A DNA stretch of 25,475 nucleotides from a virus, in UHGV virus genome UHGV-0146066; one strand, written 5' to 3'. Position 1 is the stretch's first letter. Each line of letters starts with the position of its first letter. A program made the translations under genes and the position numbers. Shown here piece after piece: positions 5,943-13,300 of this stretch. The notes beneath the pieces were generated by a model. The model was not told the origin of the DNA. It ran no database searches and was given only the letters and a program-made list of their open reading frames with translations.

Positions 5943-8900
5943 TTATTTAGTTGCTTTCAGTTCGGCAATTTCTTTCTGTAATGCTTCGATCTGGGCTTTA
6001 TATTTGGCGTCCATTTCCTGCATAGCTTTGATGATTAAAGCATTGACAGCAGAGTTAGAAATAGTCTTGATTGCTTCTGGATTTTCTGGATCTTCGGTGG
6101 ATTGAATACCTACTGCTTCCGGCAATACTTCTTCCAGATCCTGAGCAATAATACCTACTTCGCGTTTAATCACACTACGGTCTTTAAGAGATTTAACTTT
6201 ATCGTAGGTGTAGACTTTCAGTGAGTTTACTTTCTCTAATGCGCCGTCCTGTAATTCTTCCTTGTTAATCTTCAAACGGGAGTCAGAGCGAATGTAAACA
6301 TCGTTAAACGAACCGTTACGACCTGCGGTAAAGTCACCAGCAGCGTTAAAGTCAAAGTTAGTATCATGAACATGGAGACGAACAAGAGCGTTACCGATAG
6401 TACCGTCAGGAACGTGCACACCCATTGCTGCAATGTGATATTTACCCCAATGCGTCGCTTTCCATACGTTATGTGCCGAGTTGGTGGAATGAGGACACCC
6501 AACCATAAGACCAGCAGCACGGTCACGCCAGCTAGCCCAACTACCGCCAGCAACTTCACCACGAATCAGGCCATTACCGCCACCGGTTACAGTACCAGAT
6601 TCCAACTGGATCATCTTATCCGCAAGTTTCCACGTCTGGGCTTGTTTCTGACCACGGAAGCGAATAACACCAGCATCATCGGAATACATCAAACCTAGTT
6701 CTAAGCCATTCGGATCTCTAAACCACAAATGCTTATTACCAGTGCGCTTAAATTCAATATCAGCACCGTTAAGCGTGATATTACCGCCAGTGTGAATTGC
6801 TTGAGGCTTAACAGTACCGTTGATGGCAAACTCAATTGCCGTAGTACCCGGACCGCCCGGACGTTGGGTATACCAATGCCAACCGCTTTCATCAGCACAT
6901 TCAAATACTTGTTTACGAGCATCAGCGCCCCATGCACGAATATTGAAACTAGAAGTAGCTGTACCCTTACCCCAGCGAATCAGACCAGCAGATTCCAAAT
7001 CACCGAAGAATTTAGTTTTAATCGCACCAGTTGCTAAAGTACGTTCAGTGGTGAAGTGAGCACCTTTACTATCTTCAAGCTGTATAACGTTATCACGAGC
7101 GTTATTGCTATCGCCCCAATGACTCAAACGGAAATAGTCGCGGGATTGTCCAGCACCAGCATCAAATGTTAAATATTGGCCTTTAATGTATGTGTTTCCA
7201 GCAAAACGAGCAGCACGACTTGCACGTTCTAAGACTAATGCACCTTCGTTACCATCACCACCCAAAGTAACATTACCGCTACCCAGATTGTAAATGAATG
7301 GACGATAGCCGTTCCAACCACCAAATTTATCATTTTCGGCAGTAGACAGAAGATATACGTTTTGACCATCATTACGCCAGAATGCACCATAGTTACCGTA
7401 AATCATACGGAATGCATCACTGTTAGCAGCTACATATTGACCATTGGTGTATACAATTTTGGTAGCACCTGTGCTTAAAGATACTTGACCACTTGCTTCT
7501 AATTTAACAAAGTTTTTACCTTCGTCACTATACCATTGAAAATCGTTAGTATCTGTAGAACCAAAACCAAACCAGCCTTGACGTTTATTAGCCCCGTCTC
7601 GCTGATCCATATATTCAAAATAGTTACTACGACCAGTAGGACGCCACATACGAATCGCGTTATTGCCTTGCAGATGAAGTCTATCGACAAATAAACCATC
7701 ACTACCAACAATTTTTAATACTTCTTTTTGGTCGGTGGAACCAGTAGCCAAACGATACACATCACCTTGAACAGTTTCATGCCATATTGTTTCCGCCGCA
7801 CGACTGCGGAATTTACGCATATATTTTTTATTGTTGTCTGGTACGTTATTAAGGCTCACAATATCATAGGTTGCTTGTGAGTTATTATCAAACATCAACG
7901 TTCCGGCTTTGTTTTCGGTGTTGAACATCGTAATAACACGAGCATCGGTAACACCAACAGAAGGTTTAACGAGAGTTAATTCAGGAACATCATGTACTGT
8001 CAGAGTAACGCCATCAGTTTTACCGTATTCGACAATAACGTTATCGGTGTAACGACCGTAGTTAACGTAGATATCGTAGTTATCACCGGAAGTATTAACC
8101 GCAAATACTTGATGAACGTTCAGAGCATTTCGACGATAAGCAGCAATACTAACGCCTTTCGGGTTATTGTTACCGGAACGGATGACAATTTCTACAAAGT
8201 CAACCTGATCATAAGAGTTAACGTTATAACCATTACCACCGAAGATACGAAGCATTACCATTCGACCATTCTGTGGGATCGTAGCGGTTGCGATCTTGAA
8301 GTATCCACGAGTAGCATCACCAGAAGGAACGGTCATTCTAACGTTCTTGATGAACATCTGATCAACTTCGGCTTTACTATACACACCCAATTCAGTCGGA
8401 GTCGGCTTATCACCTTCGTGATACATGCGGTAGCTGAATCGCTTATTACCATCTTTATCAAAGCCATAGGTTTTAACTTGAGATGAGCTAGACCCATAGT
8501 GGAACTCAAAACCGCGACCGTGTGCTTTACCGCCAGAATGAGGAATGTTAAGGATTAAGTTACCCCAACCTTCGGCATTGTTTGGACGGAATGCACCAAA
8601 ATAATCAAGGTTACGAGCACCAGCATCATCAAAATAGTTAGCTGTTTTGGTTAACAGATAGCCGTGATGGTAAGTGTTGGTATTCTTCTTGATGTAAGCA
8701 GCATCGGCACTACCTTCAATAGAATCAATTCGCTGGTTAGCTGCGGCAATTGCGGCATCAGTAGAAGATTTATTCTGGTCTACCTTGTTGTTAATTGCTG
8801 TATGGTTGCTATTAACTGTCCCCGTAAGATTGGTGATCTTCGTGTCGGCATCGCGTTTATTATTTGCTACGGTCGTTTCTATGGCTGATTTATTTGCTGA

Positions 8901-9443
8901 GACAGTATTCGTTAAGTTAGTAACGTTGGTATTAGTCTGATCAACTCGTGCATTAATATCTGTCTTGTTCTTGTTAATTGTTGCGTTGATAGTATCGCGG
9001 GTTGAAGTAATAGTCTGATTCAGTTCAGTCTTAGCAGCCGCCAGAGCGTTAGCCGCTTCGGTTTTATTGTTACCTACTGTGGTAGTCAAAGCATCAATTC
9101 GTTTGTTGGCTGCGGTGTCGCCAGCAGTGATTGAAGCATTGAGAGCATCACGGGTAGAAGTGATAGTCTGATTCAGTTCAGCTTTAGCACTAGCCAGATT
9201 ATTAGCGGCTTCTTGTTTGTTGGAAGCAATAACACGGTCAGTGCTAGTTTTGTTATTGTCTACTTTCGTATTCAGTTCAGCGTGTTTTTCTGGAGAAACA
9301 CTAATTTGGACTACGTTATTATTTTTGTCTTTGGTGTAAATCACATGATCCGCCAACTGTAAGGCGATTTCACCCTGTGATAATTGTTCCGGCGTTGGTT
9401 TTTTACCCGCCGTCTGTGTGCGTTTAAATTGGATTGATTGCAT
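5943..9443 (-). CDS. Tail fiber protein with C-terminal intramolecular chaperone (peptidase S74-like) domain, 1166 aa
   Basis: N-terminal KRTQTAGKKPTPEQLSQGEIAL fiber motif, repetitive Thr/Asn-rich shaft, and a C-terminal RSDSRLKINKEEL...VGIIAQDLEEVLPEAV...ALIIKAMQE region typical of autoproteolytic fiber chaperone domains. AGGTGA Shine-Dalgarno. Confidence 0.8.
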   Translation of the reverse strand: MQSIQFKRTQTAGKKPTPEQLSQGEIALQLADHVIYTKDKNNNVVQISVSPEKHAELNTKVDNNKTSTDRVIASNKQEAANNLASAKAELNQTITSTRDALNASITAGDTAANKRIDALTTTVGNNKTEAANALAAAKTELNQTITSTRDTINATINKNKTDINARVDQTNTNVTNLTNTVSANKSAIETTVANNKRDADTKITNLTGTVNSNHTAINNKVDQNKSSTDAAIAAANQRIDSIEGSADAAYIKKNTNTYHHGYLLTKTANYFDDAGARNLDYFGAFRPNNAEGWGNLILNIPHSGGKAHGRGFEFHYGSSSSQVKTYGFDKDGNKRFSYRMYHEGDKPTPTELGVYSKAEVDQMFIKNVRMTVPSGDATRGYFKIATATIPQNGRMVMLRIFGGNGYNVNSYDQVDFVEIVIRSGNNNPKGVSIAAYRRNALNVHQVFAVNTSGDNYDIYVNYGRYTDNVIVEYGKTDGVTLTVHDVPELTLVKPSVGVTDARVITMFNTENKAGTLMFDNNSQATYDIVSLNNVPDNNKKYMRKFRSRAAETIWHETVQGDVYRLATGSTDQKEVLKIVGSDGLFVDRLHLQGNNAIRMWRPTGRSNYFEYMDQRDGANKRQGWFGFGSTDTNDFQWYSDEGKNFVKLEASGQVSLSTGATKIVYTNGQYVAANSDAFRMIYGNYGAFWRNDGQNVYLLSTAENDKFGGWNGYRPFIYNLGSGNVTLGGDGNEGALVLERASRAARFAGNTYIKGQYLTFDAGAGQSRDYFRLSHWGDSNNARDNVIQLEDSKGAHFTTERTLATGAIKTKFFGDLESAGLIRWGKGTATSSFNIRAWGADARKQVFECADESGWHWYTQRPGGPGTTAIEFAINGTVKPQAIHTGGNITLNGADIEFKRTGNKHLWFRDPNGLELGLMYSDDAGVIRFRGQKQAQTWKLADKMIQLESGTVTGGGNGLIRGEVAGGSWASWRDRAAGLMVGCPHSTNSAHNVWKATHWGKYHIAAMGVHVPDGTIGNALVRLHVHDTNFDFNAAGDFTAGRNGSFNDVYIRSDSRLKINKEELQDGALEKVNSLKVYTYDKVKSLKDRSVIKREVGIIAQDLEEVLPEAVGIQSTEDPENPEAIKTISNSAVNALIIKAMQEMDAKYKAQIEALQKEIAELKATK

Positions 9444-10367: not shown

Positions 10368-10790
10368 TTAAAAACGCGCTAGATAAGAAAATTTAAGGCT
10401 AAGTGTCCCAACGATACCCCCATCACTAGAATCATCGTCATAATCGGTATTAGAAGCTACTGGAGTGATATCTGAAATAGAGAAGCCCAAATCTTTAAAT
10501 CGTGGGTTATCCGGCTGAATCTGGATTATCTGGCAAATACCCTCATGGATTTTTGTTTCATGAATCTGAGAATATAATTGCATTTCGATAACGCATTCAG
10601 CTTGCATTGCATTACCACCACGAACACGCGTATAAGTTTCATTCATGCCAGTAATCCAACAAACCACGTCATCACTAAAGCCTTGCTGAGTTTGTTCTAC
10701 GTTTAAAGCCAGACCTAAATCTTGTTCGATAATATCTTGCAAGGCGCGTTTGATTTTCAGTCTCGGCATATTATTAACGGTAGCGAGCAT
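10368..10790 (-). CDS. Head-tail joining / tail terminator-like protein, 140 aa
   Basis: AGGGGG Shine-Dalgarno. Position between head genes and tail tube genes; size similar to gpU-class proteins. Overlaps the upstream ORF by 17 nt. Confidence 0.4.
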   Translation of the reverse strand: MLATVNNMPRLKIKRALQDIIEQDLGLALNVEQTQQGFSDDVVCWITGMNETYTRVRGGNAMQAECVIEMQLYSQIHETKIHEGICQIIQIQPDNPRFKDLGFSISDITPVASNTDYDDDSSDGGIVGTLSLKFSYLARF

Positions 10791-11064
10791 GTGTACCCCC
10801 TGCTAAAGTGATAAAGCAATCACAAGTATTGTCACCATTGCGCTTAACGTATTGAACTTTGAAACGCTGGTTTTCTACTGTGACAATATCACCTTGCTTT
10901 AAGTCTCCCTCACGACAGAATAGAAATTCGGTTTCTGTCATTACACCTGATTCGTCGGTAGTAGTAATTTCATGGTAAGCACGAATTGATTTACCACCTT
11001 CCACCGAAAATACAGGAGCACTTTTAAACATTCGATTTAATTGTGATTCTGATAATTTGAACAT
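10774..11064 (-). CDS. Head-tail connector / head completion protein, 96 aa
   Basis: AAGGGGG Shine-Dalgarno. First gene after the capsid gene terminator. Function inferred from position only. Confidence 0.4.
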   Translation of the reverse strand: MFKLSESQLNRMFKSAPVFSVEGGKSIRAYHEITTTDESGVMTETEFLFCREGDLKQGDIVTVENQRFKVQYVKRNGDNTCDCFITLAGGTHARYR

Positions 11065-11093: not shown

Positions 11094-11120
11094 CAAAAAA
11101 GCCCCACCGTTAGGCAGGGC
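11094..11120 (-). terminator. Intrinsic terminator after the capsid gene and its extension ORF
   Basis: Hairpin 11101-11120 followed by a U-tract on the minus strand (plus A-run 11094-11100). Homologous to the terminator at 5258-5286. Confidence 0.65.
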
Positions 11121-11126
11121 TAATTA

Positions 11127-11255
11127 TTATTCTTTAGTTTTACGTTGTTTTTTAACTGTGGCTTTCGCCGTAACCGTCTGAGATTCTTCTTCCTGAGATG
11201 GAATCAGATTTTCTTCCCCCAAATCGGGGGAAGGTTCAGATGGTTCTACGTTAGT
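11127..11255 (-). other. In-frame 42-codon extension ORF after the UGA stop of the capsid gene (candidate readthrough product)
   Basis: Codons directly after TGA (11256-11258) read TNVEPSEPSPDLGEENLIPSQEEESQTVTAKATVKKQRKTKE, then TAA at 11127-11129. Differs from the 5293-5412 extension by in-frame indels only. Confidence 0.55.
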
Positions 11256-13262
11256 TCATTCAGCGGAGATGTGAAGAACTTTCAGAGCTTCCGGCTGAAC
11301 TACGGTGAAGTCCAGGTCTACCCAGATACGCGGAACGATAGCAGACTGTGCGCGGTAAGTGGTGTCGTCCATATCCAGTTCCAGACCACCCCATTCACCG
11401 ATCATGATACCGGAGAAGTCACCCAGAACGATGTGGTCTGCCGGAATAACGCCAGAAGTAACTACATCGTAACCAGCCAGTTTGCCGTTTTCGATGATAT
11501 AACCGGAAACGCCGTTATCTTTCAGGGTAGATTCCAGTTCAGCAGCAGTTGCACCGCTCATTGCAAACTTGATGGACTGTGCCGGAACGCCAGCGTCGGT
11601 CAGTGCTGCAATTTCTTTCAGGAAGTCTTTGTAGCTAAAAGCGGCTTTCTTAGTAACGCGACCACCGTCTACCAGTTGCTTAACCAGACCTTTCGGACCG
11701 CGCTCGTTGTCTTTGTCAGACAGAATCAGTTGTTCCAGTTTGATCCGAACAGATTTGTTAATGTGATCAGTGATCAGGGTAGCAATATTCGGAACAGTTT
11801 TCAGAGACTGACGGCTGATCGGGTTGCCACCAGCAAAAGTTTTCGGAGCCATTTTCACGTTTTCAAAGCTAGCCTTCGATTCGGGGGCACTTCCATTTTC
11901 ATCAACAAAACCAAAGGCTTCGACGCTGGAAGCAGTCATTTTTGGTACTGCAATCGGGCTATTCAGACCAGACAGAACAGTCACACCCAGACGACCCAGA
12001 ACAGACTGTGGAAGCAGCATTTCTACATAGGATTCGGTCAGCAGTTTTTCGTCGGTTACAGCGGTCAGAGTAGCTTTGGTGTTACCTTCGGAAGCAGCAC
12101 GCAGAGCAGCAGCCGGAACGAATACAGAGCCACCGCGAGCAGCACGACCACGCTGCATTGCAGCACCAGCAGCCATAGCGGAATATTCAGCTTCGTTAGC
12201 GCCGAGCACGTCGCCATCTACCAGGGAGCGGATTACGTTATTAAGATCGAAAGTTTTTTCCATGATTTGTTCCTTATTAATTTGTTCGTTATTACGTTGA
12301 ACATTGGTAATGTTATTTAGTGCCTTAGTGCGGAATGCTTCCGGCGTCATATCTTTAACTGCCAATGCGCGTTCTAATTCTTCGTCGTTAATATTTAACT
12401 CACGAGCGATTGCTCGGATTTCTTCTTCGTCTTCTTCGGAACGTTCAGCCACTTCTTCGATTTTTTCTTCTTCAACCGGAGCGGCTTCACGTTCTTCTTT
12501 TACTTCTTCTGTTTCCCGAACAGTTGAACTATCATCATCAACACTTTCAGGATGTTTAGCGTCTTTTCCGTCTTCGAGATTTTCATCTTCTTTATTCTCT
12601 TCAACTTGGCGCTCTTGAGTTTCTTCTACTTCCGGTTCTTTATTTTCTTCTACCGGAGTTTCTTCAACCTGAGCGGGTTCTTGTTCTTCTTTGATTTCTT
12701 CGATTTGTTCTTTAGTCATATCGCGTTTAGCCTCCAAATTAACTGTGATAGTATTTAGAGAGCGATTCAGACCCACGGTGTCGTCTGCGGGAACAGACAC
12801 CCATGAAACCTCGTGAGGAATCCATTTAGTAACAATCAATTGTCCTTTGGTGTAGTCGATGTGATATTCTTTAATGTCATAACCGACAGAAATTTTTTCC
12901 ATCGTACCTTCAATGACTTTATTACGAATATCATTAGCCAAAGTGCCATGCTTAGAGAATTTAACCAGAGCACGACCTACGTTATCCGCATCGATTCGAG
13001 CGTTACAAACGACACCAATATGATTATCGAAATTATGATTGAACAGCAACGGAGCGTTATTATTCAGACGAGACAGATCAACCGCTTCCGGTGTATGTAC
13101 CAGAATTTCATCTAATACCACCATTTCTTGATTTTGCTCATCCCAGAATTGGCGCTGATAAGGCTGTTCACTGGAGAAAGCAATTTCAAATTCGTATTGA
13201 TCATTCTGCCCTTCGTTAATAACTCCACCGTAACCGTTAAGATCGCGGCGAAATTTAAGCAT
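11256..13262 (-). CDS. Prohead protease - scaffold-like acidic linker - HK97-fold major capsid protein in one 668-aa ORF
   Basis: N-terminal ~180 aa protease-like region, then a very acidic Glu-rich segment, then a C-terminal ~335 aa capsid-like region (GGSVFVPAAALRA...). Internal AAGGA-N7-ATG at 12263 could start a separate capsid product. Confidence 0.7.
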   Translation of the reverse strand: MLKFRRDLNGYGGVINEGQNDQYEFEIAFSSEQPYQRQFWDEQNQEMVVLDEILVHTPEAVDLSRLNNNAPLLFNHNFDNHIGVVCNARIDADNVGRALVKFSKHGTLANDIRNKVIEGTMEKISVGYDIKEYHIDYTKGQLIVTKWIPHEVSWVSVPADDTVGLNRSLNTITVNLEAKRDMTKEQIEEIKEEQEPAQVEETPVEENKEPEVEETQERQVEENKEDENLEDGKDAKHPESVDDDSSTVRETEEVKEEREAAPVEEEKIEEVAERSEEDEEEIRAIARELNINDEELERALAVKDMTPEAFRTKALNNITNVQRNNEQINKEQIMEKTFDLNNVIRSLVDGDVLGANEAEYSAMAAGAAMQRGRAARGGSVFVPAAALRAASEGNTKATLTAVTDEKLLTESYVEMLLPQSVLGRLGVTVLSGLNSPIAVPKMTASSVEAFGFVDENGSAPESKASFENVKMAPKTFAGGNPISRQSLKTVPNIATLITDHINKSVRIKLEQLILSDKDNERGPKGLVKQLVDGGRVTKKAAFSYKDFLKEIAALTDAGVPAQSIKFAMSGATAAELESTLKDNGVSGYIIENGKLAGYDVVTSGVIPADHIVLGDFSGIMIGEWGGLELDMDDTTYRAQSAIVPRIWVDLDFTVVQPEALKVLHISAE

Positions 13263-13283
13263 TTAATCACCTTTAATTAATTG

Positions 13284-13300
13284 GGGGCATTGCGCCCCCG
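13284..13300 (-). other. GC stem-loop between the portal and capsid genes
   Basis: GGGGGC-ATTGC-GCCCCC inverted repeat. No U-tract; on the minus strand it immediately precedes the AAGGTGA Shine-Dalgarno of the capsid ORF. Confidence 0.4.

Follow-up and report, generated by a model that had tools for sequence, protein, structure and literature searches.

Candidate internal translation starts in a protease–scaffold–capsid polyprotein gene of an Escherichia coli prophage

Introduction

Procapsid assembly calls for few proteases and many shell subunits. In lambda C/Nu3, HSV-1 (herpes simplex virus type 1) UL26/UL26.5 and HFTV1 gp17/gp17.5, an in-frame start located after the protease provides an abundant protease-free form alongside a rarer full-length one, and Mu I/Z constitute a further nested protease/scaffold pair. 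In HFTV1 the internal start lies in the protease–scaffold gene and was identified by harringtonine ribosome profiling and mass spectrometry, while in lambda the starts of both C and Nu3 are preceded by Shine–Dalgarno sequences (SDs) (bioRxiv 10.64898/2026.09.13.751334). Here we analyze an open reading frame (ORF) of the viral genome UHGV-0146066, a 25,475-nucleotide stretch referred to below as the window, where protease, scaffold and major capsid protein are encoded as one chain: a covalent fusion that seems at odds with the needs of procapsid assembly, yet ranks with the most frequent layouts of head genes in prophages and metagenomes. Sequence comparison points to in-frame starts downstream of the protease, at Met334 (site B) and Met182 (site A), and we put at roughly 0.6 the probability that at least one of them is used, which would make the product a known polyprotein with nested initiation.

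11256..13262, minus strand: capsid polyprotein ORF, 668 amino acids (aa), 73.8 kDa, intact, with an ATG start and its stop codon at 11256-11258

The fused architecture is in itself the already described, standard layout of a very large family. A protease–scaffold–capsid triple fusion has been stated outright for MD8 (PMC8508860) and for small actinophages (PMC7302621), and such a fusion is also described in PMC8601537; MD8 gp5 and the actinobacteriophage "major capsid and protease fusion protein" are akin in concept to the window ORF, although the MD8 protease was modelled on ClpP (PMC8508860) and that of the window belongs to the S78 family. These papers carry no mention of internal translation starts, candidates for which are found in the window ORF. 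Likewise, the literature searched, outside of which key subscription papers lay, held no report of internal starts within protease–capsid fusions, and papers on BPP-1, D3, XM1, Avs-1, Corndog, Serratia eta and V. campbellii contained nothing on the processing of fused precursors.

At the family level, positions 23-621 of the 626 in the phrog_617 profile ("major head protein") align to residues 20-663 of the window protein. An exhaustive search of 1.84 billion representatives retrieved 6,693 relatives, of which at least 512, as clusters at 50% identity, have E<=1e-30; among the top 150, nearly every representative has a length of 560-700 aa and is matched at both ends. A single fused gene is also present in the isolated phages phiHAP-1, VP882, R4C, RcCronus, the Xanthomonas FoX phages, Mano, Mica, Persinger, Alexa and HeidiAbel, whose proteins align over their full length to the window ORF at 27-43% identity; these phrog_617-type fusions (the phiHAP-1/VP882, R4C/RcCronus, Foxunavirus and Mano groups) share both the end-to-end layout and the position directly after the portal gene. 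Unlike them, the window copy resides in an E. coli prophage and has no close isolated relative: megablast with the gene as query gave no match among 50,697 phage records, relatives being found only at the protein level, and the nearest among isolated phages, at 43% identity, is that of Escherichia phage DCP80 (L156, GenBank PQ671644.1), where the signals of both site A and site B are present. The 141-kb DCP80 record is classed as Straboviridae/Gaprivervirus, yet begins with a lambda-type terminase, portal and fused capsid module, and may be a chimeric assembly. The preliminary description of the window had called the 1:1 protease-to-capsid stoichiometry of full-length translation unusual: given phrog_617, the at least 512 clusters and the three papers cited above, the architecture is common, whereas the concern over stoichiometry is legitimate in view of the rough crowding estimate given below.

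Domain architecture of the polyprotein

The ORF almost certainly encodes a protease–scaffold–capsid polyprotein, with the following segments:

12753..13202, minus strand: S78 prohead serine protease domain, about aa 21-170, from Pfam, invariant columns and predicted order over aa 21-156
12444..12752, minus strand: acidic tether, aa 171-273, with 41 Asp and Glu among 103 residues, pI 4.1, predicted disordered
12084..12443, minus strand: helical, delta-like scaffold domain, aa 274-393, from predicted helices, with the family-conserved FDLxxxIRS helix inside
12066..12068, minus strand: approximate maturation cleavage point, about residue 399, from alignment of R4C Gly362 and the predicted hinge at 394-409
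11259..12065, minus strand: HK97-fold major capsid domain, about aa 400-668, from PF05065, a sequence match to 8gta, and Foldseek

Pfam assigns aa 40-162 to Peptidase_S78 (PF04586; 39.2 bits, cut-off 21) and aa 410-664 to Phage_capsid (PF05065; 92.5 bits, cut-off 24.2). His76 (13035-13037) and Ser125 (12888-12890) are invariant both in 26 homologs and in a diverse set of 8, and they are the putative counterparts of the HK97 gp4 catalytic residues. An AlphaFold2 model built from only 8 aligned homologs (mean predicted local distance difference test score, pLDDT, 69.6) is ordered over the protease at 21-156, disordered at 157-273, helical at 274-391 (pLDDT 66-88; helices 276-288, 293-301, 307-337, 340-349, 355-370 and 384-391), of low confidence in a hinge at 394-409, and adopts the HK97 fold at 410-668. 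The helices sit right before the hinge, and we use "delta-like" for their helicity and position rather than for any match to the HK97 delta domain. The capsid part matches the R4C, D3, RcGTA and HK97 capsids with a Foldseek probability of 1.00, and its position in the head module together with the homology to the R4C capsid suggests that it forms the major shell protein. The preliminary description was thus correct in reading a protease-like N-terminus, an acidic linker and an HK97-fold capsid region within 668 aa, and we add that the gene lies on the minus strand.

The comparison with HK97 gp4/gp5 is instructive for both the likeness and the difference. The proteases belong to the same S78 family, and in both systems the HK97 fold is preceded by an N-terminal helical domain of about 100-120 residues, which in gp5 is removed on maturation and which R4C homology suggests is removed here as well. 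Conversely, HK97 encodes protease and capsid in two genes and recruits the protease non-covalently, whereas here the two are joined by a 100-residue acidic tether. This tether stands out among 32 close relatives by a synonymous diversity of 0.022, roughly fivefold below that of the protease (0.114), helical (0.116) and capsid (0.197) segments, and the ORF as a whole is poor in SD-like words, with 72 GAA versus 7 GAG codons and 34 AAA versus 7 AAG. The low diversity and the scarcity of GAG and AAG would fit selection that keeps a purine-rich region free of stray SD-like words; mosaic recombination is an alternative source of the low tether diversity.

Candidate internal start at Met334

12261..12263, minus strand: site B ATG (Met334), in frame, opening a 335-aa, 35.4-kDa product with a partial delta-like domain and the capsid domain
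12271..12275, minus strand: site B SD, AAGGA, made of the rare AAG codon of Lys330 and the following GAA, 7 nt upstream of the Met334 ATG

An in-frame ATG at 12263, preceded by AAGGA-N7 within NKEQIM and opening a product of about 335 aa, had been singled out in the preliminary description. It is present as described (coding strand AAT AAG GAA CAA ATC ATG), and its SD turns out to be conserved in relatives. With a pairing energy of -6.2 kcal/mol, this SD equals those of the terminase and tape-measure genes, which at -6.1 kcal/mol mark the weak end of a module range extending to -14.0 kcal/mol, and the Met334 ribosome-binding site (RBS) has the most accessible predicted mRNA of the 14 in-frame ATGs (90th percentile). 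Within the window alone, the site exceeds chance only weakly: AAGGA is found just twice in 2 kb and depends on AAG, a rare codon (7 of 41 Lys), but synonymous recoding yields an SD at least as good in 10% of cases. It is the comparison across relatives that raises the site above chance.

All 34 close relatives keep AAGGA-N7-ATG even though the intervening residues vary (KDSKM or KEQIM). Further afield, clusters with pairwise identities of 29-70%, drawn from Leclercia, Rouxiella, Mangrovibacter, Escherichia sp. and viral contigs, share the motif [IV]-K-[DE]-x(2-5)-M ahead of the conserved helix. The motif Lys is encoded by AAG in 9/9 of these clusters, which places AAGGA 7-13 nt before the ATG, whereas the other Lys-Asp/Glu pairs of the same ORFs use AAA 26 times and AAG 6 times (19% AAG), and those of the window ORF use AAA in 12/12 cases; assuming independence, the bias has P ~3e-7. 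A wider census finds AAG in 26 of 27 motif instances, comprising 14 distinct DNA variants in which the adjacent synonymous positions vary freely. Furthermore, in a sister clade with no Met within 10 residues of the helix (L080-L085) the matching Lys-Asp pair carries AAA in 5/5 sequences, against AAG in 15/15 sequences that have the Met. Together, these data point to synonymous-site selection that maintains the SD solely where an ATG follows, and provide the strongest single evidence for internal initiation. Initiation at Met334 is hence plausible.

The nature of the product departs from what had been proposed, namely a capsid protein made separately from the protease. Met334 lies at the end of helix 307-337 within the helical scaffold-like domain and the capsid domain begins at about 399-410, so that the 335-aa chain would be another precursor: since the predicted mature N-terminus, near residue 399, is some 65 residues downstream of its start, it would still need proteolysis.

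Candidate internal start at Met182

12717..12719, minus strand: site A ATG (Met182), in frame, opening a 487-aa, 53.1-kDa product of tether, scaffold and capsid, free of the protease
12731..12735, minus strand: site A SD, GGAGG, formed by TTG-GAG, two rare codons, with 11 nt between it and the downstream Met182 ATG

A scan of all in-frame starts against the 16S 3' end revealed a second candidate, TTG GAG GCT AAA CGC GAT followed by ATG, which carries the only GGAGG of the ORF and lies 15 residues past the last conserved protease residue, Arg167. Its SD scores -9.3 kcal/mol against -10.1 kcal/mol for the annotated start (full 16S 3' tail), and the predicted mRNA accessibility of the two is equal. 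The lambda C/Nu3 analogy drawn in the preliminary description therefore stands insofar as a nested in-frame start with an SD does exist, but its closer counterpart is Met182 at 12719, which had been overlooked, and not Met334.

Over 147 representatives, Met frequency is doubled at +9 to +22 after the protease anchor, a first Met falls within 29 residues of that anchor in about 69% of cases against about 46% at background Met frequency, and Met is also enriched before the conserved helix. For the site-A test we retrieved loci by a protease-domain pattern, which carries no bias regarding the linker, the 26-sequence alignment being too divergent for retrieval. A Met is present at +5 to +45 in 27 of 34 clusters at <60% identity; SDs of -6 or stronger precede 12/27 of these boundary Mets versus 7.1% of the non-Met codons in the same windows, and SDs of -9 or stronger precede 5/27 versus 0.9%, with a combined per-cluster permutation p = 8e-4 using the short anti-SD and 7e-3 using the long one. 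Examples of an RBS-like motif with an in-frame ATG right after the protease come from Prochlorococcus (AAGGAGGT-N7), Methylophilus (AAGGAG-N6), Desulfovibrio (GAGGAGG-N5), Aliarcobacter and Sulfuricurvum, and from the isolated phages R4C (GGAGG-N6, -9.5), DCP80, VP882, phiHAP-1, RcCronus, Persinger and HeidiAbel; in Mano, Alexa, Mica and phiRSP the signal is weaker and the Met begins a conserved MxxKILRD motif. Across domains, with a 9-nt anti-SD and a -5 kcal/mol threshold, 24% of linker Met codons are preceded by an SD versus 9% of linker non-Met codons (odds ratio 3.1, p = 4e-6), whereas by the same scoring Met codons of the protease domain are depleted in SDs and those of the capsid domain are neutral.

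In one Steroidobacteraceae metagenome-assembled genome (L063, 1001-1465), a portal–protease fusion ends exactly at the site-A boundary, with its TGA overlapping the next ATG (ATGA) and GGGAG upstream; the product of the next gene is helical, lacks a Pfam match and shows no recognizable capsid domain in the 332 residues available. A 297-aa protein of protease and linker (P0156) was considered as a natural split version and rejected, as it is cut by an IS3-family insertion.

Predicted maturation and mature N-terminus

Roseophage R4C (vB_DshS-R4C) supplies the closest guide to processing: its capsid (8gta) is the only solved relative by sequence (phmmer, E = 1e-27), its gp006 is likewise a fused precursor, encoded by gene 006 as a 629-aa ORF, and it is the best match to the window capsid domain in both sequence and fold. 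The 8gta chain comprises precisely the last 268 residues of that precursor; its first residue is Gly362 and not a Met, the N-terminal 361 residues are missing, and Gly362 aligns at about residue 399 of the window protein. The R4C structure paper contains no discussion of precursor processing or internal starts, and for this reason we took the cleavage boundary from the R4C sequences. By homology, the mature shell protein of the window would be a cleavage product of about 270 aa and 28.8 kDa, with the S78 domain as the probable protease acting on the capsid precursor. R4C also has GGAGG-N6-ATG at its Met189, right after the protease domain, as the counterpart of the window's Met182. It differs from the window protein in that identity is only ~30% and it has no AAGGA and ATG of the site-B type.

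Proposed expression and assembly scheme

In light of these comparisons we propose that the full-length chain would co-assemble into the procapsid with its protease held inside on the flexible acidic tether, and that the protease would then strip everything upstream of about residue 399 to leave a ~29-kDa shell protein, both steps being modelled on R4C. Ribosomes would in addition initiate at Met182 and/or Met334, as the comparative data suggest, to produce 53- and 35-kDa precursors that lack the protease; most of the shell would consist of these, so that only a minority of subunits would bear a protease. In this prophage use of Met334 seems somewhat likelier than that of Met182, while family-wide the Met182-type sites appear the likelier of the two. 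More tentatively, and with the odds in our view rather against it, one frame may routinely be decoded across the family into two or three nested products (protease–tether–scaffold–capsid, tether–scaffold–capsid and, in the enterobacterial branch, part-scaffold–capsid), with initiation, and not proteolysis alone, setting the ratio of protease to scaffold to shell. The short site-B form may have an assembly role of its own, for example in pentons or in size determination.

The scheme relates to the nested systems above without coinciding with them. As in lambda, an in-frame RBS and start are found downstream of the protease, here as GGAGG-N11 at Met182 and AAGGA-N7 at Met334, and an abundant protease-free form next to a rarer full-length one is proposed likewise. 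However, lambda, HSV-1 and HFTV1 have a separate capsid gene, and their nested product is scaffold only, whereas here the capsid domain is in the same frame and the nested products would comprise scaffold plus capsid (from Met182, the formal equivalent of HK97 gp5 plus an acidic leader) or part of the scaffold plus capsid (from Met334), possibly from two internal sites. Internal initiation is experimental in those three systems and a matter of sequence comparison here. The window ORF is hence not a strict member of the lambda C/Nu3 class, but would work like one.

Weighing of the evidence and alternative readings

Several observations weigh against internal initiation and temper the probability given above. 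A 13-nt anti-SD shrinks the linker effect to an odds ratio of about 2 (p = 0.003 at -6 and 0.12 at -8), and with it the depletion among protease-domain Met codons loses significance. Synonymous recoding of the six upstream codons gives p = 0.07 for site A and 0.10 for site B in the window, and Fisher-combined values of 0.36 and 0.55 over all loci; because this test is non-significant, most of the SD-likeness must follow from the amino-acid sequence. Nor is there a fixed-column Met family-wide: among the 147 representatives, position 334 is mostly Glu/Asp and position 182 is variable, so that the Met signal is visible only through offsets from conserved anchors. Synonymous diversity upstream of both sites is unexceptional in the 32 close relatives (20th-24th percentile). 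The five closest enterobacterial relatives from outside E. coli have site B but no strong site A, the 11-nt spacing at Met182 exceeds the 5-7 nt typical of the module, and Met334 interrupts a predicted structured domain, which would leave its product without an evident function. Finally, the test windows and the AAG test were set after the data had been seen, the clusters share ancestry, and the E. coli anti-SD was applied to every host.

The alternative that best withstands the data is that only the full-length 668-aa chain is made, that it assembles 1:1 and processes itself, and that the internal ATG and SD words are idle in initiation. This reading is unlikely in our estimation, yet far from negligible: it gains from the recoding test, from the annotation of every relative as a single major capsid protein coding sequence, and from fusions in hosts that make little use of SDs and in which the boundary Met has none (L043, L044, L054 and L055), and P2 gpO, a protease–scaffold fusion, is reported to be made as a single full-length chain (bioRxiv 10.64898/2026.09.13.751334). 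What it leaves unexplained is the AAG codon at one particular Lys in 26/27 diverged sequences, with AAA elsewhere and in the clade that has no ATG, as well as the recurrence of a strong SD and ATG exactly at the protease boundary. Strict 1:1 assembly furthermore looks crowded: by a rough estimate based on HK97 and P22 procapsid dimensions, 415 internal parts of 45 kDa amount to ~19 MDa, or 50-80% of the interior of a T=7 procapsid, compared with ~25% in HK97 or P22.

A less probable reading, which we regard as improbable overall, holds that the SD-like words pause elongation for co-translational folding, or that they are decaying relics of the starts of once-separate scaffold–capsid genes. Sites A and B do fall on or close to a boundary between predicted domains or helices, a gp4–gp5 fusion would put the start of an HK97 gp5-like gene at site A, and the L063 protease ORF stops exactly there, with the next gene following by an ATGA overlap. 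Pausing, however, needs no in-frame ATG 5-13 nt further on, and yet AAG is kept only where that ATG is present; relics, in turn, are not expected to persist at synonymous sites among proteins of 29-70% identity, nor across phyla in at least 512 clusters.

That the long ORF is an artefact, with a sequencing or assembly error or a pseudogene joining separate genes, can be dismissed: the 668-aa protein is found unchanged on 106 E. coli contigs, in 44 complete E. coli genomes a copy spans 80% or more of the query, an open frame is kept in 32/33 related viral contigs (the exception, L033, is shortened to 393 aa) and across relatives from many phyla, and R4C is a viable phage with a solved capsid and the same fused gene. 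The same 106 identical copies and 32/33 open contigs dispose of the proviso, raised in the preliminary description, that a sequencing error might hide a stop codon between the domains.

Genomic setting

13266..13274, minus strand: AAAGGTGAT, SD belonging to the annotated start, separated by 3 nt from the ATG at 13262
11100..11121, minus strand: intrinsic terminator-like hairpin, with a 9-bp stem of 6 GC pairs followed by TTTTTG, 135 nt past the capsid stop and before the next head gene

On the same strand, the capsid ORF is preceded by a GpA-type large terminase, a head–tail joining protein and a lambda-type portal, and followed by two small ORFs without a PHROG match, a major tail protein, a 1166-aa tail fibre, an adhesin and a tape-measure protein: this module order is that of the late operon of a lambda-like, siphovirus-type E. 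coli prophage. Of 5,426 complete E. coli genomes, 55 have a match, in every case on the chromosome and labelled by PGAP as a single "phage major capsid protein", and many near-identical variants are present in E. coli and Shigella. Some related E. coli capsid genes (L151, 3001-5064, AP028561.1, and H46, NZ_OW848980.1) are disrupted by insertion sequences, one being truncated to 297 aa by an IS3-family element and another interrupted by IS903B; these copies are decaying prophages.

Phages Mano and Mica have an annotated terminator at the spot 3' of their fused capsid genes that corresponds to the hairpin listed above. Two further GC-rich hairpins, given as on the coding strand, flank the window gene: GGGGGCGCAATGCCCCC at 13282-13300, within the 45 nt that separate the portal stop from the capsid-gene RBS, and CTTCCCCCGATTTGGGGGAAG at about 11213-11233, directly after the capsid stop. 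The 96-aa ORF that follows (10774-11064, minus strand) has a sub-threshold Phage_attach match (PF05354, 24.4 bits against a cut-off of 26) and may encode a head–tail attachment or head-completion protein, while no match was found for the ORF after that (140 aa, 10368-10790). Antisense to the capsid domain, a TTG-initiated ORF of 391 aa (11145-12320, plus strand) has no Pfam match and a low-complexity composition, and is most likely spurious. The 1166-aa tail-fibre protein (5943-9443, minus strand) carries N-terminal tandem repeats (e.g. NNKT...AAAKxELNQTITSTRDxxNAxI, seen at least twice), and its C-terminal half matches long-tail-fibre distal-subunit families.

Conclusions

The fusion of protease, scaffold and capsid was known before; the internal starts proposed inside such a triple fusion, from sequence comparison, are the new element. 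If they are used, the puzzle of how a covalent fusion can supply few proteases and many shell subunits would be solved as it is in the scaffolds of lambda, Mu, herpesviruses and an archaeal virus, with the strategy extended to the capsid protein itself, and this would add weight to the view that the HK97 lineage shares an ancient expression strategy. It would also mean that annotation pipelines, which report one "major capsid protein", miss nested products, and that proteomics searches as well as recombinant capsid and nanocage designs based on such genes should allow for them.

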